Source: a virus
Lineage: Duplodnaviria; Heunggongvirae; Uroviricota; Caudoviricetes
IMG/VR virus record: IMGVR_UViG_3300032893_000479
Span: 1 to 10,367 of that record
Length of the DNA: 10,367 bases
Direction: 5' to 3' (one strand)
Shown here: positions 1 to 10,367 of the stretch, piece after piece
How the letters are laid out: each line of letters opens with the position of its first letter
Position numbering within the stretch: position 1 is the stretch's first letter
The notes under the pieces: generated by a model
Database searches by the model: none
Told to the model about the DNA's origin: nothing
The model's input: the letters and a program-made list of their open reading frames with translations, nothing else
Made by a program: the position numbers and the translations under genes

Positions 1-831
1 TCATATGTAACCCTCCCGCCGCCCTTCAACCGTATTGTAAAACGGCACGTCTCTATTAGCGATATCGAAATCGACTTTGAAAATAATGAATTTACCATTG
101 CAGCCCGGATTAAATTTGCTGTCGATAGTCAGTCGGCCGCCCAATTTTGTTTTTGGATCAAGCAAATATTTTACGCGCACGCCGTGCTCAGTTTGTTCAG
201 GAACACCGATCATTCCGCTGTTGGCGCTCAATACGTGCTCAACATTTTGCAACGGTTTTCCAACGTCTTTGACATACAACGTACCGTCTTCCACGAACGC
301 GTTAACATTGGCAATTTGATTTAATTTGCCCACTTGACGAATCGTCGCGCCTGCGAATTGATAATTTTCAACGTTCGTATCCGTCGCTTGGAATACTAGT
401 CCGACGCCAATATCCGACGCGATCCGAGCCGCTAGCGTGGACAATTTAATTGTTGACAGCATCGATCGTGCAACGATTGCGCCTGTTGCAAATTGATTGC
501 TAATAGCGCTCATTGTCAACGCTATTTCTGGCGGCTGACTTGCCTGAGCCCGCTGTATATCACCGCTGAACAATCTGTAATACCCCGTACTAGATCGTCC
601 AGCTTCGATAATCAACCGTTTTGGCGATCGCAAGAAATTGTAGGGGGTGACTTGCGTTAGAATATAATTGCGCACGTCGGCCGCGAGATTGTAAATAGTA
701 ACTGTAGCCTCGTTATTCAATTCGTTGGCGTACAGCGTGCCGCGCGCAACAATACGCAAATCATCGTAGTAGCGCATTTGCCCGTCGATTTGTATTCCGA
801 CGCGCAGCAAGCGATCGTCGAAGCTACCCAT
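1..831 (-). CDS. Hypothetical protein (276 aa), candidate baseplate hub / distal tail protein by position
   Basis: Complete ORF with ATG at 829..831 and stop TGA at 1..3. Third gene after the TMP in the same orientation. Function inferred only from synteny. Confidence 0.4.
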   Translation of the reverse strand: MGSFDDRLLRVGIQIDGQMRYYDDLRIVARGTLYANELNNEATVTIYNLAADVRNYILTQVTPYNFLRSPKRLIIEAGRSSTGYYRLFSGDIQRAQASQPPEIALTMSAISNQFATGAIVARSMLSTIKLSTLAARIASDIGVGLVFQATDTNVENYQFAGATIRQVGKLNQIANVNAFVEDGTLYVKDVGKPLQNVEHVLSANSGMIGVPEQTEHGVRVKYLLDPKTKLGGRLTIDSKFNPGCNGKFIIFKVDFDIANRDVPFYNTVEGRREGYI

Positions 832-1144
832 TGCGCAAATTCTCCAACTCGGCGCCAGTCATGAATAACAAAAAATGCGTCGTTCCGAATTTTGTATAAT
901 CAGGATATTCCAGATTGGTATCCCAGTAGAAATTGCCGTAGCCGGCTTCAAGGTACCGATAAGGCAAAATACCTGTTATGGGCATGCAACGTGTATTTTG
1001 TATTAAGGTTATGCCGTCGCGAATAACGGTTGAAAACATCATACCCGACTCAATCGTTCGCAACGTGATGTCGTACCTCACGTTATCGAACGTGATCGTA
1101 AAATTCTGATTTGGTAATTGCTGAAGCGGTATATTTTGCGGCAT
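824..1144 (-). CDS. Hypothetical protein (106 aa), probable tail/baseplate-associated component
   Basis: ATG start overlapping the upstream stop by 1 nt (TAATG), and overlapping the downstream gene by 8 nt. Coding is supported by operon context. No motif recognised. Confidence 0.4.
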   Translation of the reverse strand: MPQNIPLQQLPNQNFTITFDNVRYDITLRTIESGMMFSTVIRDGITLIQNTRCMPITGILPYRYLEAGYGNFYWDTNLEYPDYTKFGTTHFLLFMTGAELENLRNG

Positions 1145-1635
1145 TAGTAAAAAATCCTATGCAATATAGATTCGCTGCCACTTTGTTCGCCGCGCTTTAC
1201 CGTAGACTGATCGGTAGGTTTGCGAACATTGTTTGCCGCCAATTGTTGAAATTGCGCTTTAACAAATATTGCTTGTTTCAAATTGATAACGATTTTAATT
1301 GTTTTCCACAATTCCGGTTCTTCCTCATGCGGCATGCTAACGATAATCATATCCTGATACACATCGGACCGCGTTTGCACGATGAGCTTATCGCCGCTAA
1401 TCCAACGTTGCTTAATCGCAGCGTAAACGTCTTTAGCGTCATTTCCCGGTATCATCACGATCAAATCTATTTCCACCGGATCGATCACGCGGGCGTCCGT
1501 GATGCTGATTCCACTTTCTAGCGGATGTTCGAACGATCTGGACGTTTCGAAAATAGACGCGCGCATTGCTTCCGATGTCGGAAACAATTGCGTGTAATCC
1601 GCGTCATATAGACCAACAATTTCTTGTTCTGTCAT
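1144..1635 (-). CDS. Hypothetical protein (163 aa), probable tail/baseplate-associated component
   Basis: ATG start overlapping the TMP stop (ATGA). First gene after the TMP, where distal tail or baseplate initiator proteins are normally encoded. Acidic composition. No motif recognised. Confidence 0.4.
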   Translation of the reverse strand: MTEQEIVGLYDADYTQLFPTSEAMRASIFETSRSFEHPLESGISITDARVIDPVEIDLIVMIPGNDAKDVYAAIKQRWISGDKLIVQTRSDVYQDMIIVSMPHEEEPELWKTIKIVINLKQAIFVKAQFQQLAANNVRKPTDQSTVKRGEQSGSESILHRIFY

Positions 1636-3197
1636 GCCATCAGCCCGTCATCGTGTTGATAGATAGCGCTGTTGATATACAACTTTAAGGCGTCGCTGAT
1701 ATTTTGCGCCACTTCGTTGGCATCTTTCGCTTCGGTTATTACGTCGATTTTATCGATGCTGATTGAATTTTGCTGACTACGAGCTGTCGCCATATTTGTG
1801 ATCGAAGATGATGTCTGCGGCAGCAGCGGATTACGCGACATCATTGCTAATTGTTGTTGCGCGTTATTTGTCAGCGGATTTTCTATTTGCGGTAAATCAA
1901 CGGCACCGCTTTCTGGATTGAACATATCTTTAAATTTTTGCCATATTTCAGGTATTTTTGAAATTTTATCAACAACGAAATTGAAAACTTTTTGGACCCA
2001 GTTGAAATAAACTTCCCACGCTTTTGATGCAAACTCAGCGGCACTCGCGGCAGCTTCGCCAAACCATCGCAGCGCCTGCGCAGTTTTCGGAAAGCGTTTT
2101 TCCAGTTTGTCCAAAAATTTATCCATGCTTGCGCCAGCAGTTTCTAATGCGGCGCTAAAGCCTTTTGTAAAAACATCTGATAAGAAGTCGGCAACGATAC
2201 CGATCCATTCTTTCAAATATTTAAAAACTTCGACAACTTTATCGATTGCCTCTTTAAACAACGGATATTTTTTTGCCAACTCACCGATCACGCTTGCGTG
2301 ACCGTTTAAATACGCATTGAAATCGTCCCAAATAAGCGCGGCGGCGGCGGCCACTGCAATCAACGCCATCCACGGGGCGAGAAATGCAATGGTTGCAATC
2401 GTCGCTCTAACGAGCGCTGGAACAAGGATTCCCGATAATGCAACGCCAAGCGATACAAAAAATTTCGTCATGAATGCGCTGTTGTTTCGCATCCACATCA
2501 ATATTTTTTCCAGCAGTTTGAAAAACTCGGTGAGATATGGCATTACCGCCACGGCAAGCCGACGCTTGATATCTTCAAAAACTAAGTTCGTCATGCGTTG
2601 CTGAATCACGAACTTAGTTGAAATTTCGACTTGTTCTTTTGTTACAACGCCAAGTTCTTTTTGTTTGGCAATGAATTCGTCTAGCGCTTTGCCGCCCATT
2701 TGCAGCAGATTGATCGTGCCGATATCGAGACCGAAACGCTCGCCCAATCGTTGCGCTTGAATTTTGCTAAGCCCTTCGAATCTTCCCTGTATCTGCTTCA
2801 GCGTTTCGATAGGGTCGCGACCGTAACGACTCAATGCTTCAAGACTGCGCGCAAATCCTTCCGCCGTGCCGCCTGCTAGCTCCGCAGCCTGTGTCCACGC
2901 GCTATACTGCTCCGCCGATACTTTTGCTTGTTGCGCGTTTAGCCCGAGCTGTCGCGTGCTTTCAGCAACGTCGAATACCATCGATTTCAGGGAATGAAAT
3001 GCGAGAAAGCTCGCACCGAGCGACGCCGCACTTTTAACGGCATCGACAAGGTGCTTGCCGAGCATGTCGGCCGCTTTATCGGTTTTATTGAGGGTGTCGC
3101 CGAGTTGTTTGCTTTGCTTATCGGAATGCGCAAGCCCTTCGTCCAGTTTGCTGGCGTCGGATTCGAACAGGAAGTAAAAAACGTCGAGAATATTCAC
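1632..3197 (-). CDS. Tail tape measure protein (TMP)
   Basis: 521-aa ORF immediately 3' of the chaperone/frameshift pair. Predicted largely alpha-helical, with a long central hydrophobic segment (approx. residues 246..290, FFVSLGVALSGILVPALVRATIATIAFLAPWMALIAVAAAAALIW) typical of TMPs, plus regularly spaced aromatic residues. Apparent start is GTG at 3195..3197, preceded by AGGA at about 10-nt spacing. The stop overlaps the next gene as ATGA. Confidence 0.8.
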   Translation of the reverse strand: MNILDVFYFLFESDASKLDEGLAHSDKQSKQLGDTLNKTDKAADMLGKHLVDAVKSAASLGASFLAFHSLKSMVFDVAESTRQLGLNAQQAKVSAEQYSAWTQAAELAGGTAEGFARSLEALSRYGRDPIETLKQIQGRFEGLSKIQAQRLGERFGLDIGTINLLQMGGKALDEFIAKQKELGVVTKEQVEISTKFVIQQRMTNLVFEDIKRRLAVAVMPYLTEFFKLLEKILMWMRNNSAFMTKFFVSLGVALSGILVPALVRATIATIAFLAPWMALIAVAAAAALIWDDFNAYLNGHASVIGELAKKYPLFKEAIDKVVEVFKYLKEWIGIVADFLSDVFTKGFSAALETAGASMDKFLDKLEKRFPKTAQALRWFGEAAASAAEFASKAWEVYFNWVQKVFNFVVDKISKIPEIWQKFKDMFNPESGAVDLPQIENPLTNNAQQQLAMMSRNPLLPQTSSSITNMATARSQQNSISIDKIDVITEAKDANEVAQNISDALKLYINSAIYQHDDGLMA

Positions 3198-3756
3198 TAT
3201 CGATTATTCCTGTTCGCATGCTCTGCGGCTAAGTATTCGTTGGCGCGCCGTACAATCAGAACCTCCGCCATATCACAGAGGTCTTGCAACGTGTAGACCG
3301 TGGCCAGCTCATGCGGCGTCGCTAATCTTTCGCCGGTGACTGCGCCCGCAATTGGGTCAACATTTGCGTAATCAATGCTTGGAACTTGCCCGAGAATTGA
3401 TCGAGGTAATGTGACAGCGCGCCTTTCGCGAAAAAACTGCAATTGTATTCCATCATTGCCCACTCGATCCGTATCAGCGCCTCGTAATCTGGTACATGGT
3501 TGTTGATGAGATCGAGAGAACCCAACCGCAGAGGGTCGGCGCCCGCAATGGGCACCGCAACATGCGACAGAATTTTTATCATCAGCGCTTCGTTAGTTTT
3601 GTAGTCGCCAATTTTCGGCGCGGCAGTCAGCGGATATTGCGTGACAATTTCACGACCTGCCGTTGCCGAAAATTTACTGATGATAAAAATTTTTTCCGAT
3701 CCGTCCATGAGCTTTATCGGTTGTTCTTTTGGCTGTAGCAGCGGAAGATGATTCAT
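3197..3756 (-). CDS. Tail assembly chaperone, long form produced by programmed -1 frameshift (approx. 186 aa: frame 0 from 3756 to the slippery site, then -1 frame to 3197)
   Basis: Frame-0 codons AGT TTT TTC (plus coordinates 3438..3430) give, after a -1 slip, CAG TTT TTT CGC..., which continues open for 77 codons to a TAG at 3197..3199 that overlaps the TMP start. The -1 frame ORF has no credible independent start (the track's start is a GTG in the middle of the chaperone gene with no RBS). Confidence 0.55.
3322..3756 (-). CDS. Tail assembly chaperone (short, in-frame form; gpG/gp E-like role)
   Basis: 144-aa ORF immediately 5' of the tape measure gene. An overlapping ORF (3197..3463) in the -1 frame runs from inside this gene to exactly the TMP start, and a T_TTT_TTC slippery heptamer lies in the overlap. 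This is the conserved chaperone frameshift architecture of tailed phages. Confidence 0.65.
   Translation of the reverse strand: MNHLPLLQPKEQPIKLMDGSEKIFIISKFSATAGREIVTQYPLTAAPKIGDYKTNEALMIKILSHVAVPIAGADPLRLGSLDLINNHVPDYEALIRIEWAMMEYNCSFFAKGALSHYLDQFSGKFQALITQMLTQLRAQSPAKD
3430..3436 (-). other. Putative -1 programmed ribosomal frameshift slippery heptamer T_TTT_TTC (X_XXY_YYZ)
   Basis: Plus-strand gaaaaaa at 3430..3436 is TTTTTTC on the coding strand, positioned as T TTT TTC relative to the chaperone frame. It lies in the overlap between the chaperone ORF and the -1 frame extension ORF. A short GC-rich palindrome (CGCG AAAGG CGCG) follows immediately but is a weak and atypically close stimulatory element. 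Confidence 0.55.
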
Positions 3757-4199
3757 AGTGCGGACACCTTATTTTCGAATGCGAAAATGTAGGGCTTTGA
3801 CTTCATGCGCCCCTGACTCGCAACAGGATTGCCCGGAATGGCCGACGTGATAGCCCCTTTCGACAAAGTGATCACATTGCCGCTCGGGTAAACCAGCGTC
3901 AAAGTTATGATATCGCGTGCGGGCCGCTTGCCTGCGGCAACACGATTCGCCTCCGCAATAATGCCGAGCGCGATATCGTCGAGCGAACCGGGCACCACGG
4001 CCAGCGTTGCCATGATGGGGTTAGGCTTTGACCATGTGATCAAATTGCCGTTGAGCCCCATTGCAGTTTGCGCCAGCTCCAAGGCTGCGATATCGAGCGG
4101 ATCGATATCGTCGGCGAACTGCGTGATAGGCACGCCGACCGGAAAAGTAACGCTAGCCTTAACCGTGGCGATTAGACCAAAACCTGAAATATCGGACAT
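3753..4199 (-). CDS. Putative tail tube protein
   Basis: 148-aa ORF with ATG start and a good RBS, positioned between the putative sheath and the tail assembly chaperone. Size and position are typical of myovirus tube proteins. The final 4 nt overlap the chaperone start (ATGA). Confidence 0.55.
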   Translation of the reverse strand: MSDISGFGLIATVKASVTFPVGVPITQFADDIDPLDIAALELAQTAMGLNGNLITWSKPNPIMATLAVVPGSLDDIALGIIAEANRVAAGKRPARDIITLTLVYPSGNVITLSKGAITSAIPGNPVASQGRMKSKPYIFAFENKVSAL

Positions 4200-4207
4200 T
4201 GCTGTAA

Positions 4208-4213
4208 TCTCCC
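4208..4213 (-). promoter_or_regulatory. Shine-Dalgarno motif (GGGAGA) for the putative tail tube gene
   Basis: The 16-nt intergenic gap 4200..4215 reads on the minus strand CCGGGAGATTACAGCA ATG; GGGAGA lies 8 nt upstream of the ATG at 4197..4199. Confidence 0.5.
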
Positions 4214-4215
4214 GG

Positions 4216-5730
4216 TTAGATTAAGTTGTGAGTGCCTTCGACTTTGCGGATCACGTCATCTTTCGAATAGATCAGCAAATACGTTGCTTTATAGATGGTT
4301 TGATTGTTGACGACTTCCGGCACGATAACGACATTGTACCAGTAGCCAATGCCTTGCACTTGTTGCCAAGCGTTGCTATCACCGCTCTGCAACGCAATAT
4401 CGGCCTTTTGCAACGGCGTAAGCACTTTGCCGATGCTAATTGTACCGTTGAACAGTGCTTGATCTACGCCGTCTTGAAGTAGATTGAGGCATATCGAGCG
4501 ACCGGCTTCGTCAGCATCGATTTTCGGCAGCACCAGCAACGCGTTCATGAACGACGCAGTGAGATACGACGACAACCACTGTTCGTTGCCGTAAACGTTT
4601 TGATCTGCCGGCGACGTATTCGGACCAAACAGCGAACCGCGCTGATAGAAAGATACGTTCTGACCGTTGATCTGCGTGTTACCGTAATAGTTAACGCGAA
4701 TCGCATCCAGCGAGTCCGACGTGGGCGTATCGGTAACCAATGCGGTCACCGGAAATTGTTGGAACATATAGTTGGACGTTGAATTTTGTTTCGTGTAGTC
4801 CGTTGCCGCAAGCTGAATCATCGGAATCATTTCCGGGTATTCGTTCGGATAATTTATCGGATCGTTTATCGTCATGGCGGTCCCCGCGATTTGACCGATC
4901 GCAGACGCGATTACCGACGCAGACGCTTGATCACAGGCGAGCATGAATTGGTACGAGACACTATTTGACGCGTTCCATTCTACAATTTCTGCCCAATCGC
5001 CTATGTCCGTAGTTGCCATGAACAAAAACGAACCGTAATTATTACTTATCTGATCTGCTGCAATAACTGCATCTAATGCCGACGAACCAGCCGTGCCGAC
5101 AACATCGATTGCGCCATCCGCAACGTACAGATTTAGCAAATTTCCAACATCGGTAGCACCTGAGCCGGCCTGTAAAAATGTAAGTGAACCTGCGCCCGCA
5201 ACACCGCCAACAACAACGAATCGATTATTCGTCGAATCGTAGGTTACCGTGCAAGTGGTCAGCTGCGGATCGGAGTTCGTTCGCAAACGCGTTTGCAACA
5301 ACGAAGCAATGTTGGCGTAGCTAGTGGCAGTCGAGAAATTGATGCTACCGATTGAGATAGGGCCGCCACCAGTGCTTACCGATACGGTACCGGCCGTAGT
5401 GGAAATAAGGCCGCTCAGAGCAGTCGGCGATTTTCCGCCGAATACACGGGCAGCAAACGCGTTCGGCTGCCAGCCAGCAAAACAAATCTTTTTCGCCTGG
5501 GTTAGCTGTTTGGAAACCCAGCCAAAATAAAACGCTGCACGACGATACTCTTCTGATGAAGTGCCAAAGAATGCGGCAACATCATCTACCGATGTGTATT
5601 CGATGATGTTATCGGTAGATACTAACGGATTGCTAGTAAAAATTCTTCCGATAAGCTCGCGCACTTGCACAATAGCCGAACCGCCGACACCAGACCGAAT
5701 ATCAACATATTTGCGGTAATTAATGGACAT
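4216..5730 (-). CDS. Putative contractile tail sheath protein (DUF3383-like by recollection)
   Basis: 504-aa ORF with ATG start and a strong RBS. Located directly 5' of a ~150-aa tube-sized gene, then chaperone/frameshift and tape measure, which is the canonical myovirus order sheath-tube-chaperone-TMP. Size is typical of phage sheaths. Contains a G/S/T/A-rich low-complexity internal region. Family assignment was not verified by search. Confidence 0.6.
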   Translation of the reverse strand: MSINYRKYVDIRSGVGGSAIVQVRELIGRIFTSNPLVSTDNIIEYTSVDDVAAFFGTSSEEYRRAAFYFGWVSKQLTQAKKICFAGWQPNAFAARVFGGKSPTALSGLISTTAGTVSVSTGGGPISIGSINFSTATSYANIASLLQTRLRTNSDPQLTTCTVTYDSTNNRFVVVGGVAGAGSLTFLQAGSGATDVGNLLNLYVADGAIDVVGTAGSSALDAVIAADQISNNYGSFLFMATTDIGDWAEIVEWNASNSVSYQFMLACDQASASVIASAIGQIAGTAMTINDPINYPNEYPEMIPMIQLAATDYTKQNSTSNYMFQQFPVTALVTDTPTSDSLDAIRVNYYGNTQINGQNVSFYQRGSLFGPNTSPADQNVYGNEQWLSSYLTASFMNALLVLPKIDADEAGRSICLNLLQDGVDQALFNGTISIGKVLTPLQKADIALQSGDSNAWQQVQGIGYWYNVVIVPEVVNNQTIYKATYLLIYSKDDVIRKVEGTHNLI

Positions 5731-5732
5731 AG

Positions 5733-6266
5733 TTAAACCCTCTTGAGTTGCACATCTATGGCGGTTAATTGTCTTTGTGCGCTGCGCACGGTGTCGGTAT
5801 GTGTAAGTATTACATCAAAACTCGGCTCAGCTTGCCACTGCGATCTGTCGTTATCACTTTTCGGATTCGGCACCGTCGTAATCCTCAAAATATTTGCGCC
5901 GCCCGCGATCAACGCTTTTTGAAACGGCCAATCGTTCATGATCAGCGCGAATCTGTTCAACAAATCCGATGCGGTGTCACTTGTAACATCTTCAGGGGTG
6001 CTGTTAACCACTGCGTTAATTTGGACCGTTGTCATTATGACCTGCTCAACGATACGCCAATAATTCGTACCATCCCATTGCGAATATTTTGCTGGTGATC
6101 CGTAACGTTGATTGACAACGATATTCATCGACAAATAACGCGATTGCGGGCGCCCTTGTTGTGTCGGTTGAAAATTTTGCACAAAAGGCACGTCGCTATA
6201 GCCGGCCGCATCCAACAATGGGCGCGCTGTTGAAAGAATCAGACGAATCAAATCTTTTTCTTTCAT
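5733..6266 (-). CDS. Putative tail terminator / sheath-proximal neck protein (hypothetical)
   Basis: 177-aa ORF with ATG start, ending 2 nt upstream of the putative sheath gene start. In myovirus modules the gene immediately 5' of the sheath is commonly the tail terminator or tail completion protein. Assignment is by synteny only. Confidence 0.35.
   Translation of the reverse strand: MKEKDLIRLILSTARPLLDAAGYSDVPFVQNFQPTQQGRPQSRYLSMNIVVNQRYGSPAKYSQWDGTNYWRIVEQVIMTTVQINAVVNSTPEDVTSDTASDLLNRFALIMNDWPFQKALIAGGANILRITTVPNPKSDNDRSQWQAEPSFDVILTHTDTVRSAQRQLTAIDVQLKRV
5738..5742 (-). promoter_or_regulatory. Shine-Dalgarno motif (GAGGG) for the putative sheath gene
   Basis: Minus-strand sequence AAGAGGG TTTAACT ATG: GAGGG lies 7 nt upstream of the ATG at 5728..5730. 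Confidence 0.5.
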
Positions 6267-6709
6267 CAGTCGTAACCTATGCCCGGCATGTCGTATCCGA
6301 GCCCCGGCGTGTCGTATGCAAGTGCGCTAGGCACGACGATAGGGCCAATATCAACGGCTATCGTGTATGCCCAACCGTCTAGCACGTACCAGTCATTATC
6401 GTTGATCATCTGATAACGCCTGCCGTTCCATTCGAACTGGTCGCCACCGTCGCCCCGATCGAGAGAAATTATCCCCTCTTGGATAAAAAGTTCAACGTAA
6501 TTTTTTTTCAAATCGAAACCAAGCGCGGCGTATTTAGAACGATTGACTGCTTGTACGCTGCAATCGCCGACATCTATTCCAAGTTCGAAAGTTGACACGT
6601 AATAGCCAATTTCATTGAGCTGTCGGCTTGCGCATTTGAAATAACGTACCGTTTGCGGCGCGATCAGCGCAAGAGCACTGTACAACAAGTTTGATCCGGG
6701 CACGCTCAT
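6266..6709 (-). CDS. Putative neck / tail completion protein (hypothetical)
   Basis: 147-aa ORF with ATG start, ATGA overlap with the upstream gene and 1-nt overlap with the downstream gene. Lies between the adaptor-type genes and the gene preceding the sheath. C-terminus carries a short tandem peptide repeat (PGLGYDMPGIGYD). Confidence 0.4.
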   Translation of the reverse strand: MSVPGSNLLYSALALIAPQTVRYFKCASRQLNEIGYYVSTFELGIDVGDCSVQAVNRSKYAALGFDLKKNYVELFIQEGIISLDRGDGGDQFEWNGRRYQMINDNDWYVLDGWAYTIAVDIGPIVVPSALAYDTPGLGYDMPGIGYD

Positions 6710-7245
6710 TTGCTGCCAACCTCGCTTGTTAGCGTGGCAATCATATGGTCGCTATCGTTCAGCGGCTTATCGCTGACGCCGCTATAATCTGGTGGATTCG
6801 GCCCCTTGAGCGCTGCCGCCGCTTCGCCGACAGTCTTCCCGGTAATTTTGCGCCCTTGTCTGCGCCATAAACGCAATACCATCGTAATGGGCGACAAAGG
6901 CGGTGTAAAAATGTTGGATAATGTTTGAAGAATATCGCCTTCGGCCTGTTGTGCAACGCCTTTCAAAACATCTTCAACGGTCAATTCGCCGCGCATAGCC
7001 ATTGCTGCACCTTCGCCCATTAACTTTTTCCATTCTTCGCCGCGCTGCGCTTCCGTTGTGCGCATGAATGAGCGCGAGCCACCGTCGCGAAATTCCTGTA
7101 TCGCCGCCACGTAGGCCACGGGGGTGCCGTCCTCGTATTTTGCAGACTCAAACCAACCGACACGCGATGCCAACTTGCTGAGCTTTCTGCTTTCTCGCTC
7201 GAATCTCAGCCGTGAGGCAGTTTTCTTATGCACCAATTTGCCCAT
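6706..7245 (-). CDS. Putative head-tail joining / head closure protein (HK97 gp10-like)
   Basis: The ORF track begins at a TTG (7246..7248), but the second codon is ATG (7243..7245) and overlaps the upstream stop as TGATG, so I place the start at 7245 (179 aa). The segment RVGWFESAKYEDGTPVAYVAAIQEFRDGGSRSFMRTT resembles the HK97 gp10 family pattern. Basic N-terminus. Position fits a neck gene. Confidence 0.45.
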   Translation of the reverse strand: MGKLVHKKTASRLRFERESRKLSKLASRVGWFESAKYEDGTPVAYVAAIQEFRDGGSRSFMRTTEAQRGEEWKKLMGEGAAMAMRGELTVEDVLKGVAQQAEGDILQTLSNIFTPPLSPITMVLRLWRRQGRKITGKTVGEAAAALKGPNPPDYSGVSDKPLNDSDHMIATLTSEVGSK

Positions 7246-7688
7246 CAAAAACTACCGCCAAATTTGCGGAAGCCTGCGCGCTCGCAGCTGCCGCCAATAT
7301 AAAAACCGCCTGACGATTTGACGCTGAAAAAAGCCCACAAACGCATGCCGTATGGCGTCAGAGATAGCCATTGCTGCCACGCATTTTTAACGGGTGGCGC
7401 TTGCACGGTGACGCTAACCTTATCGATCGATGACGCAGTGACCGCGCCGACTTGGCCTTGACCGCGCTGCGCGTTGAGATTTGCTTGCCACTGCATCATG
7501 TGAGCGGTCATCAAATAAAGCGCCTCGGTGATTTCTGCCGCGCTCATCAGACACCATTCCTGCGGATACAGATAAACTTTCGCCGTATCGAAATACGCTT
7601 GTATATAGGCGTCGGAATACGCCGAAGTGCTGGCGAATGCCGGAAATTCTGCGCGAAAATCTGCAATGACAATAACAATATCGCTCAT
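7245..7688 (-). CDS. Putative head-tail adaptor/connector protein (DUF4054-like by recollection)
   Basis: 147-aa ORF with ATG start and 4-nt ATGA overlaps to both neighbours. Small protein between a head-proximal gene and the neck genes. The N-terminal sequence (MSDIVIVIADFRAEFPAFAS...) resembles the phage adaptor family I recall as DUF4054; this was not verified by search. Confidence 0.45.
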   Translation of the reverse strand: MSDIVIVIADFRAEFPAFASTSAYSDAYIQAYFDTAKVYLYPQEWCLMSAAEITEALYLMTAHMMQWQANLNAQRGQGQVGAVTASSIDKVSVTVQAPPVKNAWQQWLSLTPYGMRLWAFFSVKSSGGFYIGGSCERAGFRKFGGSF

Positions 7689-9454
7689 GATTTTAACCCG
7701 TAAGCCGGTTTGACTCCCGAATAGTTTATCGTGTTTTCGTTCGAATAGACGGGGCTTTTGTAATTTTGCTCAGGAATCAAAATAGGCGGCGTGTAATTGT
7801 TGTCGAAAGTATCGCTAAACAACGACAAAGCGCGAGTGCGCAATCCGTTCAATGGTACGTAAAGGGGATCGCCGATTGTGTAAACGCCGTACCCCACCGC
7901 AGTGGCAGAGTCTTGATACAAACAAATTTCAGCTGCATTAAAACCGGAATAAATTGCGCTAATGTACAAATTAGAATACACGGCACCGGCTTCGCTTGGC
8001 TCAGTAACACATGCCGAAGAAAATACCGCACCCGAGCGAATAGCGCTAAGCACTCGGTTTTCGCAAGTGTACGTACTAGTTTTGAGCTGCCATCCGTTCG
8101 CGTAGCAATAAGCCGCAAGAGCGTCCCAAATTTGACGCATGCTCAAACCTTGCCACACCAATGAAAAACTTGTCGTCGTACCGTCTGCTTTTAGCACGAT
8201 GTTAGTCGTTGTCAAATCAATTTTTGCTGCCGTCGACGGTCCGCGCACGCCGAAAGTGGCTACGTAATTGCCGAGTTCATTTTTTATTTTTACTTGCATG
8301 ACGGGGCTGTTGCCAGCCGAATAATAGTTATTCCATTCGGCATCTTCGCTGCTGTCCCAACCGGCGACAATATTGCTGCCGGTCTGGATGTCGCCAGCTG
8401 CAAGGGGTGTCGTCCAACATACGCCTATCGGAAATAATGGCGCGGCCGGAGTGCTGGTGTGGAACACTGCGATGGCACCGAGCGCATATGAATAATCTGC
8501 AGCGACTTCAGCGGGACGATGCGGACCGTAATAACTATCGTCGAGCACCGCGCGCATGAATACGCCGCTGGTCGGCACGAAGCCGTCATTTCCGGGCGCT
8601 TCTATTGCGCCCGGACCTTCGTCGGGAAATATGCTCGGCGGATTGCCGCGATAGTATTGCGCAAGCCTGTCATCCAGATAGTACGGATAATTATCGATAA
8701 ATAAATTTTCTGTTTGTCGTCCGTTGCGATCGACGATGTTCGGAATGTTGAATTTCGGCGGTAAATGCACGGCAAGCGTGGTCACCCACGCTTGCCGGTA
8801 CGTCTGCGAGTAAAGTTTTGGAATACTCGTTCGATTTAATTGTTCGGCAGCAATGCTGCGATCGATGATACCTTTTGCAAAAGTCTCATCGTAGTTTGTC
8901 GATACCGGCATGTTGAAAACAGATACAACATCAAGCGGTGTCGTGTACGGGTGCAAATATTTTTGCGGATTGACTTCGACCATGAACGCGGGCAGCGTCG
9001 GCTTCGGACTGATCGGCAAATTTTGCAAATTGGCGTTTGCTTGCGCCTGCGTAGGATCAGGATTTGCAACAATGCCGACAGTAGAAATGTTTGGATTTGC
9101 TGCGATGTAATCGGAAATTTTGAAAAGATTTTTGCAGATCACTGAATTGGTCAAATCGCCAATACCGGGCAAATAAGGGAAATCGATCGCAGGACAAGTG
9201 CCAATGAAAAGAATAACTTTCAGGCCGCCTGCGACAGGATGATTAATCATCGTATCGAGAAAAGTTTTAACATCGGCCCACGTAGTCAATCTTGCCGATG
9301 TATCCAATGCGCCGGACAATAGTAATTTGTTTTGCGCGGGAACGTTGCGTTGCGCCATGTAATAATTGAGCACATCGACAGCGGCCGGCACTGACGAACG
9401 TGCGACAACGAGAATATCCGCAGGCGTGATAGGCACGGGGGTGATGATCGCCAT
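7685..9454 (-). CDS. Large hypothetical structural protein (589 aa); candidate major capsid or head decoration protein by position, function unknown
   Basis: Long uninterrupted minus-strand ORF with ATG start at 9452..9454, preceded by GGAG (plus coordinates 9463..9466) at 8-nt spacing. Sits immediately 5' of the putative head-tail adaptor gene and overlaps it as ATGA. Composition is N/S/T/Y/G/P-rich. I recognise no motif. Confidence 0.5.
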   Translation of the reverse strand: MAIITPVPITPADILVVARSSVPAAVDVLNYYMAQRNVPAQNKLLLSGALDTSARLTTWADVKTFLDTMINHPVAGGLKVILFIGTCPAIDFPYLPGIGDLTNSVICKNLFKISDYIAANPNISTVGIVANPDPTQAQANANLQNLPISPKPTLPAFMVEVNPQKYLHPYTTPLDVVSVFNMPVSTNYDETFAKGIIDRSIAAEQLNRTSIPKLYSQTYRQAWVTTLAVHLPPKFNIPNIVDRNGRQTENLFIDNYPYYLDDRLAQYYRGNPPSIFPDEGPGAIEAPGNDGFVPTSGVFMRAVLDDSYYGPHRPAEVAADYSYALGAIAVFHTSTPAAPLFPIGVCWTTPLAAGDIQTGSNIVAGWDSSEDAEWNNYYSAGNSPVMQVKIKNELGNYVATFGVRGPSTAAKIDLTTTNIVLKADGTTTSFSLVWQGLSMRQIWDALAAYCYANGWQLKTSTYTCENRVLSAIRSGAVFSSACVTEPSEAGAVYSNLYISAIYSGFNAAEICLYQDSATAVGYGVYTIGDPLYVPLNGLRTRALSLFSDTFDNNYTPPILIPEQNYKSPVYSNENTINYSGVKPAYGLKS

Positions 9455-10367
9455 TACAACAACTCCACGCAGACGGCGCGAGCGCTCATCGTGAACTCAT
9501 TCGGCGACACGATCGACAAGTTATTTATGCCGATAATCAAACGCACGTTGATATCGACAGATATGCAAGGATAATTTGTCGGACCGAAAGCGAAATCTCC
9601 GTTGTAAATGGGTATTGCGTCGCTAGGCGAACCGCCTTTTTTAATTGTCAATGTGCCGCCCGTATTCGACACGTGGAAAGGAATTTCAAAAGAGCCGACT
9701 TTTCCGGCGTATGTGCCGCGTGTGCCTTTTATGGCGACAAAAATTCGTCCAACAAGATCGCCTTGTCGGTTATTGGTGCCGGCCATTGACAAGAATTCGC
9801 CGCCAGAAGTGAATTGATCGAACGTAAAACGCGGTACGACTACGTCCACGCTTTGCGAAAATCCTTCATTCGCAAATACCACGCTATTGTTATACAGCGA
9901 GTCGATGCCGTAGCCGGCATGGAACAACGGCGAAATCGATGAGATTAGATTGCCGAACCCAAAAACGATATTTTGGCTTTGCAACTGATAGCCCGCATTT
10001 CCGCTCCCTATGCAAATACTGAAAGGGCCGGAAATACTGTTATTCATCCCCCATATGAAATTATAAATAACGTTCGCATTCGGATCGAAAGTAATATCGT
10101 CAAAAGTGATAACCGATTGTTGATATGCTTTGCCGAATTCTGCCGGCAATTGTTTGATTGCCGCTTTTGTTTTGATATTGTTGTAGCCGCTTGTCGCATC
10201 GCCGATATCAATATTGATGCTATACAGCATCGCGCTTAATGCCGGCACTACGCCGGACATCGAACACTGAAGTGCATTGCCAAAAAATCGAATTTCATTG
10301 ATCACGGTGGCGACGCCGACAGTCAGCATCGGCAGCTGAAAGACTGCGACTTTTTTAGCAGCGGTGC
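9454..10367 (-). CDS. Hypothetical protein, probably virion (head-associated) structural protein; 5' end likely outside the window
   Basis: Minus-strand ORF 9454..10329 (291 aa from the first ATG). The same frame stays open with no stop from 10330 to the window edge at 10367, and there is no Shine-Dalgarno motif before the ATG at 10329, so the true start is probably beyond the window. Stop TAA overlaps the ATG of the next gene by 1 nt (TAATG). Protein is rich in N/S/G/T/Y/F, which suggests a beta-rich structural protein. No family recognised. Confidence 0.5.
   Translation of the reverse strand, partial: TAAKKVAVFQLPMLTVGVATVINEIRFFGNALQCSMSGVVPALSAMLYSINIDIGDATSGYNNIKTKAAIKQLPAEFGKAYQQSVITFDDITFDPNANVIYNFIWGMNNSISGPFSICIGSGNAGYQLQSQNIVFGFGNLISSISPLFHAGYGIDSLYNNSVVFANEGFSQSVDVVVPRFTFDQFTSGGEFLSMAGTNNRQGDLVGRIFVAIKGTRGTYAGKVGSFEIPFHVSNTGGTLTIKKGGSPSDAIPIYNGDFAFGPTNYPCISVDINVRLIIGINNLSIVSPNEFTMSARAVCVELL
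9463..9466 (-). promoter_or_regulatory. Shine-Dalgarno motif (GGAG) for the 589-aa gene
   Basis: Minus-strand sequence GTGGAGTTGTTGTA ATG: GGAG lies 8 nt upstream of the ATG at 9452..9454, inside the 3' end of the upstream gene. Confidence 0.4.

Follow-up and report, generated by a model that had tools for sequence, protein, structure and literature searches.

What kind of protein is encoded by a large orphan gene that lies directly upstream of a tailed phage's head-to-tail adaptor gene? The question is raised by a window of 10,367 nt, positions 1 to 10,367 of the IMG/VR virus record IMGVR_UViG_3300032893_000479 (Caudoviricetes), in which an ATG-initiated open reading frame (ORF) at 7685..9454 on the minus strand, the longest in the window, encodes a protein of 589 amino acids (aa), 63.9 kDa and pI 5.0. 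A preliminary description of the window placed this protein where the major capsid or decoration protein is normally found, and named as candidates a large or fused major capsid protein, a head decoration or fibre protein and a virion-associated enzyme. We suggest that it is an accessory protein, expressed late and probably associated with the virion, whose gingipain-like site has been remodelled, a reading that we favor with modest confidence; its place in the virion is deduced from gene position and its activity is putative. The preliminary description had singled out the gene as the most unusual in the window, and that intuition was right.

Relatives and predicted fold of the 589-aa protein

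Direct profile searches with the 589-aa protein gave no match in Pfam, PHROGs or PADLOC, in line with the earlier failure to recognize a family by eye. The PADLOC search, at E<=0.1, also gave no match for the 369-aa product of the preceding gene or for three relatives. A word-indexed search left the protein a singleton among 5.8 billion clusters, and use of an alignment as query added one bacterial TIGR03790 protein only. An exhaustive phmmer search of 1.84 billion representatives (E<=1e-3) found 22 relatives with 25-36% identity, mostly 530-660 aa long; one of these, P0014, is a repeat protein and probably spurious. Since it has 22 distant homologues, with 23 invariant columns in a 15-sequence alignment, the ORF (P0001, gingipain-fold/TIGR03790-like) is evidently a genuine gene and not a chance ORF; the ORF list and the gene call on the parent contig agree on it. 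A tblastn search of 50,697 phage records with the 589-aa protein and three relatives gave no match, and no cultured phage there has a family member; the phage clade is a metagenome-only one. The composition, high in A/P/T/S/N/Y/G and low in K/E/R, bears out the N/S/T/Y/G/P-rich character noted earlier.

The NCBIfam model TIGR03790 matches the 589-aa protein with 21.4 bits (E=1.5e-4), over residues 13-46 only and below the cut-off of 67 bits. All 17 phage-clade relatives scanned match the same model below cut-off (20.7-47.9 bits) and no other NCBIfam model, and their matches cover the two ends of the profile, positions 2-40 at the N-terminus and ~259-310 at the C-terminus. Three relatives, P0022, P0023 and P0024, are bona fide bacterial members of TIGR03790 with 107-341 bits, and their N-termini look signal-peptide-like by eye. 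Two alignments were made: A1, with 15 phage-clade sequences, is collinear end to end with the 23 invariant columns, and A2, which joins the phage clade and the bacterial TIGR03790 proteins, is collinear with 19. Kept throughout A2 are V16, Y32, R36, E204, G326-A327, S334, G475, E485-P486, G504, G528-D-P-L-Y532 and P534; conservation counts given below refer to 23 members. We found no mention of TIGR03790 in the searched literature. That the 589-aa protein is a divergent, phage-borne member of the TIGR03790 superfamily forms part of the explanation that we favor, and shares the modest confidence that we place in that explanation as a whole.

An AlphaFold2 model built on the 15-sequence alignment has a pTM of 0.70 and a mean pLDDT of 58; pLDDT is 65-94 in the conserved core and drops below 50 in the tail at the C-terminus and in the variable loops. 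Compared with known structures, the model scores highest against the gingipains, with 15.7 for the mature domain of RgpB (274 residues aligned) and 14.6 for Kgp. Lower scores were found for separases (7.6-11.1), CHAT-domain proteases (6.5-9.8), PorU (8.4), legumain (6.7), C11 proteases (5.3-6.2), a metacaspase (6.1) and caspases (5.3-5.8). The predicted fold is that of a gingipain catalytic domain (peptidase family C25, clan CD), with an A-subdomain and a six-stranded caspase-like B-subdomain; this is the two-subdomain form, typical of gingipains, of the caspase-hemoglobinase fold of clan CD. The model gave no match to an HK97 or jelly-roll fold. The protein has no PHROG or Pfam match to a tail fibre or tailspike, and its predicted fold is alpha/beta and gingipain-like. 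Searches of PDB sequences with phmmer and hmmsearch gave chance-level matches only and no protease, and nothing similar was found among the predicted viral structures of BFVD (best E=0.38). Sequence lends independent support: in alignments with RgpB, three MAFFT modes agree on the pairs I13/L15, W30/Y32, R34/R36, E132/E204 and the terminal FGDP/IGDP; the RgpB and Kgp sequences were checked against PDB entries 4ief and 4tkx.

The domains are described here in protein order, with positions on the minus strand of the window. In brief, the N-terminal alpha/beta A-subdomain (residues ~10-95; 9170..9427) carries the motifs 'ILVV..(9)..YY...R.VP..N' and 'LKVILFIGTCPAIDFP', and is modeled as strands 14-19, 43-46 and 80-85 and helices 23-36 and 59-70, with pLDDT 82-94. 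The preliminary description had seen alternating strands and helices here, and had read the N-terminus as alpha/beta rather than as an HK97 start; the model upholds both points, the alternation being that of the A-subdomain. Y32 (9359..9361) is present in 21/21 and R36 (9347..9349) in 20/21 of the members that cover this region. The first part of the B-subdomain (residues ~150-340; 8435..9007), delimited from the alignments and the model, includes E204 (8843..8845), which aligns with RgpB E132. It further includes strand 295-303, followed by Y308-Y309-G310 (8525..8533) at the presumed catalytic-His position, and strand 321-331, followed by S334 (8453..8455) at the presumed catalytic-Cys position.

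A beta-rich domain of 95 residues (372-466; 8057..8341), with seven strands and one long helix, is inserted after strand 4 of the B-subdomain. Most phage members have this domain; P0017 and the bacterial TIGR03790 proteins lack it, and in A2 the target residues ~340-466 have no counterpart in these proteins. W455 is kept in 21/23 members, with gaps in P0002 and P0017. The second part of the B-subdomain (residues 467-535; 7850..8056) contains R467, G475 and G504, strand 478-482 followed by E485-P486 (7997..8002), and strand 524-528 followed by G528-D-P-L-Y532 (7859..7873). Each of E485, P486, G475, G504, G528, D529 and P530 is present in 23/23 members. The last 54 residues (536-589; 7688..7849) form a C-terminal tail with pLDDT 33-40 that is predicted to be disordered. 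This tail is unique to the 589-aa protein; its relatives stop a few residues past GDPLY.PF.

The missing His-Cys dyad and the conserved crest

Clan CD is defined by its fold together with a His-Cys dyad that is conserved, His-Gly following strand 3 and (Ala-)Cys following strand 4; separase, CHAT, PorU, legumain, C11, metacaspases and caspases all keep this dyad (PMC12445089). We found no conserved His column in the 15-sequence alignment of the phage clade. The sole conserved Cys, C87 (14/15), is located in the A-subdomain and occurs only in the phage clade, being absent from the bacterial members. Because there is no conserved His, and because the only conserved Cys is outside the B-subdomain and restricted to one clade, the canonical dyad is evidently missing, whatever the alignment of the middle region.

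To map the dyad positions, the six strands of the B-subdomain were paired one-to-one with those of RgpB. Strand 1 (target 214-217) pairs with QALCIAS of RgpB, strand 2 (~251-254) with TKIIKCY, and strand 3 (295-303, then Y308-Y309-G310) with ISLANYTGHG. Strand 4 (321-331, then S334) pairs with PFIFDVAC, strand 5 (478-482, then E485-P486) with TVAIIAST, and strand 6 (524-528, then GDP) with TWTVFGDP. By this pairing, Tyr309 would take the position of RgpB His211, and Ser334 that of Cys244.

The loops at these positions are nearly invariant in phage and bacterial members alike. Position 334 is Ser in 22/23 members, the exception being an alignment gap. Position 308 is aromatic in all 23 (Tyr 20, Trp 3), and position 309 is Tyr in 18, His in 3, and Phe and Leu in 1 each. 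Glu-Pro at 485-486 and Gly-Asp-Pro at 528-530 are found in 23/23, and Tyr532 in 22/23. These crest residues (Y308, S334, E485-P486 and G-D-P-L-Y) all lie at the C-terminal ends of strands, after strands 3, 4, 5 and 6, where clan CD builds its active-site crest. Such near-invariance suggests that a functional pocket has been kept at the canonical place with a different chemistry. The crest may be a site whose chemistry does not depend on cysteine: a hydrolase with a serine nucleophile, or else a site that binds a ligand. Y32, R36 and E204, which are common with the gingipains, probably maintain the fold.

Genomic setting of the gene and its relatives

The parent sequence is the ENA metagenome contig ERZ27256510 k141_1519920 (22.7 kb), whose locus L001 is the reverse complement of the window. 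The other minus-strand genes of the window all belong to a contractile-tail module of the E217/PB1 type according to Pfam and PHROG profiles. Directly downstream of the 589-aa gene is the head-to-tail adaptor gene (E217 gp27 type, DUF4054; 7245..7688; PF13262 E=1e-18, phrog_302 E=2e-33). The minus strand further encodes Neck1/tail completion (phrog_222), collar (E217 gp28 profile), gateway (E217 gp29 profile), sheath (DUF3383), tube (E217 gp32 profile), tape measure (several PHROG tape-measure families) and baseplate hub (E217 gp41 profile). Further upstream on the contig are genes for a portal, for a Mu-F-like protein and for a protease/scaffold (Pa193_gp24, phrog_3778), and those for a cement protein (PF22758) and for the major capsid protein of 377 aa (PF09950, phrog_264). 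The capsid gene is followed by a 129-aa gene (phrog_3714), a 369-aa gene and the 589-aa gene, which leads to the adaptor. The HK97-type capsid protein has 52-55% identity with its counterparts in known myoviruses, namely Aeromonas phage Gekk3-15, Xanthomonas Carpasinaviruses, Burkholderia phages and E. coli Wifcevirus-type phages.

The 589-aa gene is tightly joined to both neighbors. Its ribosome-binding site, GGAG at 9463..9466 by direct reading of the sequence, is 8 nt 5' of the ATG at 9454, and the TAA of the upstream gene (9456..9454) shares one base with this ATG in a TAATG junction. At the other end, its TGA stop codon (7685..7687) overlaps the adaptor start codon in an ATGA junction. 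The ORF list and our reading of the sequence thus agree with the preliminary description on the size of the ORF, its GGAG site and its overlap with the adaptor gene. Translational coupling on both sides of the 589-aa gene implies that its product would be made late, together with the structural proteins.

Genes at this place are rare. In phages Gekk3-15, FoX7 and Bas99 the order is capsid, a hypothetical gene of ~140 aa and the DUF4054 adaptor, with nothing between the last two. A tblastn search of phage records, using the 129-aa protein fused to the adaptor as query, found both halves at one place in 353 of the 435 matching records; only three records have more than one place. Two-piece matches among the rows listed span 0.73-0.96 kb; on this contig the same two genes are 2.94 kb apart. 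In the cryo-EM study of phage E217 the reference order runs from gp24 (decoration) through gp25 (capsid), then gp27 (adaptor) and gp28 (collar), to gp29 (gateway), and that study built 19 virion gene products, none of which is equivalent to the 369-aa or 589-aa genes (PMC10329688). Because related phages have no genes there and the E217 virion set holds no equivalents, the two genes are, as gene order indicates, a rare, lineage-specific 2.9-kb insertion between the small gene that follows the capsid gene (gp26 position of E217) and the adaptor gene. The preliminary description had proposed to survey what lies upstream of the adaptor in related genomes; the slot of the 589-aa gene is empty there.

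The base composition of the insertion is like that of the neighboring genes and gives no sign of recent foreign origin. Scans for promoters and terminators gave no signal that sets it apart from the operon, and the only notable hairpin follows the capsid gene. This hairpin is located outside the window, in the 67-nt gap after that gene (L001 6071..6087), and consists of a GC-rich stem and a T-run (GGCGG-CTAGTCC-CCGCC CCTTTTTC); it is possibly one of the terminators or attenuators that often follow phage capsid genes.

The partner gene runs off the end of the window, which holds its 3' part (9454..10367, minus strand, from the contig gene call); the '291-aa ORF' of the window is this cut-off part, and the full gene encodes 369 aa (P0025, L001 6566..7675). 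The 369-aa protein has no PHROG, Pfam or PADLOC match and no tblastn match in phages, and is a singleton among the 5.8 billion clusters. By eye, its N-terminus ('DPTQPPQGQTPASSATLRAQFASAAQDIDDLQAQI') resembles a short stretch of helix or coil, after which comes a body that is beta-rich and N/S/G/F-rich.

We examined the contigs of nine relatives of the 589-aa protein. All nine appear to come from phages, none of them of the E217 type, and in eight of the nine the family gene adjoins phage structural genes, mostly podovirus-like. The P0005 gene follows an SU10-type adaptor and precedes a P22 gp10-like gene, and that of P0012 is upstream of an SU10-type portal and capsid. P0002, a protein of 1,212 aa with a weak Ig-like match, is located between a terminase and a P22-type portal, and P0009, with a weak FN3 match, downstream of a terminase; these Ig-like and FN3 fusions in some relatives are sub-threshold matches. 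P0003 and P0016 are directly upstream of cell-wall hydrolase genes. On the podovirus-type contigs, the neighbors of the family genes thus include tail, adaptor and lysis genes.

In seven contexts (L005, L007, L010, L012, L013, L014 and L016) the family gene is directly preceded by an orphan gene of 234-339 aa, which suggests that the podovirus-type contigs carry a conserved cassette of two or three genes, distinct from the partner in the window. On these podovirus-type contigs we also noted a gene of 119-244 aa before the 234-339 aa orphan. Many of the 234-339 aa proteins have a common N-terminal motif, '(N)FP(A/C)(L/V)K(F/Y)', recognized by eye. The relations detected among the partners are L007_146 to L014_138 (E=1e-13), L012_309 to L016_255 (E=1.6e-6) and L007_339 to L005_234 (E=5e-4). 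The 369-aa protein has no detectable relation to the partners of the podovirus contexts, which are only weakly related in pairs and almost all orphans. Two of the contigs carry genes of another kind close by. On L013 (6084..8002) the toxin-antitoxin genes BrnT/BrnA and a weak HicA match are found between the terminase and the cassette, and on L012 (6247..6564) a Tad2-like anti-Thoeris gene is located 1.6 kb downstream of P0012.

Several further observations concern the contig itself. A megablast search of phage and E. coli genomes with the whole window gave no match, and a search of viral contigs with the adaptor protein found no related loci. Among cultured phages, the 129-aa and adaptor pair has its closest relatives in two small ones of ~40-42 kb, Leptolyngbya phage Lbo-JY16 with 45.5% identity and, with 37%, Bordetella phage vB_BaM-IFTN6. 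The capsid protein is instead closest to myoviruses of 61-68 kb, and the contig may represent a mosaic or intermediate lineage. The Neck1/tail-completion gene (6706..7248, minus strand) encodes 180 aa from a TTG start that overlaps the adaptor stop, or 179 aa in the contig call, which starts at the next codon. It is located between adaptor and collar, a small difference in order from Gekk3-15 and Bas99, where the tail-completion gene comes after the collar/gateway positions. Directly 5' of the tape-measure gene, also on the minus strand, a 144-aa ORF (3322..3756) and an overlapping 88-aa ORF (3197..3463) resemble a tail-assembly-chaperone pair with a programmed -1 frameshift (3197..3756). A slippery heptamer, 'T TTT TTC' at 3436..3430, is in the zero frame of the 144-aa ORF, and the -1 frame continues to the tape-measure start codon.

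Proposed role and comparison with known systems

The role that we suggest combines fold and gene position. A protein with a predicted TIGR03790-type gingipain fold, a 95-residue inserted beta domain and a disordered C-terminal tail is encoded by an insertion outside the conserved E217/PB1-type virion gene set, and coupling on both sides would cause it to be made late. It may then be carried on or released with the virion, where it could bind or cleave a component of the host cell envelope, and the 369-aa orphan may serve as its attachment or fibre subunit. Among the candidates named at the outset, a virion-associated enzyme comes closest to the evidence. The protease-family fold speaks for the enzyme part, the catalytic dyad is not conserved, and the link to the virion is drawn from gene position.

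A number of points weigh against this proposal. The gingipain link depends on one AlphaFold model with a mean pLDDT of 58 and 261 residues below 50, which limits our assessment as a whole. Alignment of the family with RgpB or RgpB plus Kgp by hhalign gave probabilities of 0.15-1.4%, which are not significant, and no Pfam clan CD match was found at E<=10 for the 10 family members scanned. MAFFT and hhalign disagree around RgpB H211 and C244, and the mapping of Y309 and S334 derives from the pairing of strands. The inserted domain has no informative fold match, the best but weak one being a surface domain of a tail-sheath protein. Only ~10 residues precede the first core strand of the 589-aa protein, in which we recognized no virion-attachment domain, and no cultured phage in the searched collection has a relative for which proteomics might exist. 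The 369-aa protein is unrelated to the partners in podovirus contexts, and the 'cassette' may not be one functional unit. By gene position alone, a non-structural passenger gene would fit as well.

How do the alternatives compare? A large or fused major capsid protein, or a head decoration protein, is favored only by size and by the place 5' of the adaptor in a window that was cut, and we consider it extremely improbable. Both roles are filled, because the cement and capsid genes lie further upstream on the contig, and the position is not the one normally held by these proteins. A fused capsid is ruled out by the separate 377-aa HK97-type capsid gene and by a model that is gingipain/caspase-like alpha/beta and not HK97. 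A decoration role in the usual sense is already covered by the PF22758 cement protein, and the model has no HK97, jelly-roll or beta-tulip match; moreover, related phages have no gene at all at this position. A passenger (moron) pair in the late operon is doubtful, and clearly less so than a capsid role. Here the 589-aa protein could act in counter-defence, as a mimic, a trap or a cleaving enzyme directed at caspase-like/CHAT defence proteases of the host or at their substrates, or it could be an intracellular late enzyme. The two genes are orphans and missing from hundreds of related phages, the fold also occurs in CHAT and caspase-like proteases that serve in bacterial defence systems, and related contigs have Tad2-like (L012) and BrnT/BrnA and HicA (L013) genes nearby, all of which would suit a passenger. 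On the other side, the PADLOC search found no match, translational coupling is tight at either side and the genes lack their own promoter or terminator, and their base composition follows that of the neighbors. Relatives recur in or beside structural modules and not in early or accessory regions, and a protein of ~64 kDa with an N/S/T/Y/P-rich, charge-poor, surface-type composition is atypical of small anti-defence proteins.

The alternative that we take most seriously, while still thinking it unlikely, is a non-catalytic appendage: a pseudo-protease scaffold or adhesin that together with the 369-aa partner forms a head or neck fibre or whisker, comparable to the neck-whisker genes of some myoviruses. 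Loss of the canonical dyad fits such a role, as does the place of the gene directly upstream of, and coupled to, the neck genes. Some relatives appear fused to Ig-like/FN3 domains by sub-threshold matches, and such domains are typical of surface-exposed structural proteins of phages. The unique disordered tail of the myovirus copy could be an attachment peptide, and the inserted domain matches a tail-sheath surface domain best, if weakly. However, Ser334, Glu485-Pro486 and Asp529/Tyr532 are near-invariant from phages to secreted bacterial TIGR03790 proteins, which exceeds what a scaffold needs and indicates a conserved pocket. The 589-aa protein contains neither a coiled coil nor repeats of the fibre type, and the virion atlases of E217 and Pa193 are empty at this position. 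We prefer a probably virion-associated accessory protein with a putative functional pocket to an inert appendage. A bolder form of this proposal, which we regard as slightly less probable still than the appendage, is that the phage clade and the bacterial TIGR03790 proteins make up a new enzyme family on the clan CD scaffold with a serine-centred site (Ser334, Glu485, Asp529, Tyr308/Tyr532) in place of the Cys-His dyad. No catalytic variant of the caspase-hemoglobinase fold that is of serine type, or not a peptidase, would have preceded it. Phages would have taken up this family, adding a beta-domain, and would use it as a new class of enzyme that is carried by the virion, acts on the envelope and passes between the structural modules of myoviruses and podoviruses.

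The fold and the superfamily are of already known kinds. Our searches turned up no earlier description of the phage clade, of the dyad's replacement, of the inserted domain or of the placement in structural modules of two phage morphotypes. If the fold and the Tyr/Ser/Glu/Asp crest hold, the family would combine the architecture of a virulence protease with a different chemistry. It would span secreted TIGR03790 proteins of environmental bacteria and the structural modules of uncultured phages of two morphotypes. TIGR03790 would gain a structural frame and testable catalytic residues, and a new type of accessory module would join the phage insertions into otherwise rigid head-neck-tail operons. 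Because no cultured phage carries the family, its role is open to experiment only via synthesis or heterologous expression. For annotation, one should not presume that a large orphan ORF beside an adaptor gene encodes part of the capsid; in this case the whole contig together with the structure prediction overturned that reading.

Among known systems, RgpB and Kgp of Porphyromonas gingivalis (PDB 4ief, 1cvr, 4rbm) are the closest in predicted structure, and motif anchors are collinear from the first strand to the terminal 'GDP'. The 589-aa protein differs from them in several respects. Identity is 9-12%, beyond detection by sequence profiles, and the His211-Cys244 dyad is not conserved, with Tyr309 and Ser334 probably at those positions. 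The protein is phage-encoded and has no signal peptide, it has the 95-residue insert after strand 4, and it is without an equivalent of the Ig-like C-terminal domain, the pro-domain or the type IX secretion signal. Separase, CHAT-domain proteases (Craspase/Csx29, SAVED-CHAT, DdvA), PorU, legumain, clostripain-type C11 proteases, metacaspases and caspases are less similar than the gingipains, and no phage structural module is known to include any of these clan CD members.

The bacterial TIGR03790 proteins P0022-P0024 have the N-terminal motif 'LVV..YY...R.IP..N' in common with the phage clade, and the motifs 'GA(I/V).....S', 'G.A...G...EP' and 'GDPLY.P(F/Y)' follow in the same order. In contrast, the 589-aa protein is below the curated threshold and hence no member by that cut-off. 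The phage clade has no signal peptide and an additional conserved 'SR' (R467), and with its 95-residue insert and long variable loops reaches ~590 aa versus the 316 positions of the profile. At the level of gene order, the flanking genes are the standard ones of the E217/PB1/Pa193 module (gp27-type adaptor, gp28, gp29, DUF3383 sheath, gp32, gp41, portal, Mu-F-like protein, protease/scaffold, cement and capsid). In the reference, gp27 comes directly after the gp26-position gene; the 369-aa and 589-aa genes found here are additions.

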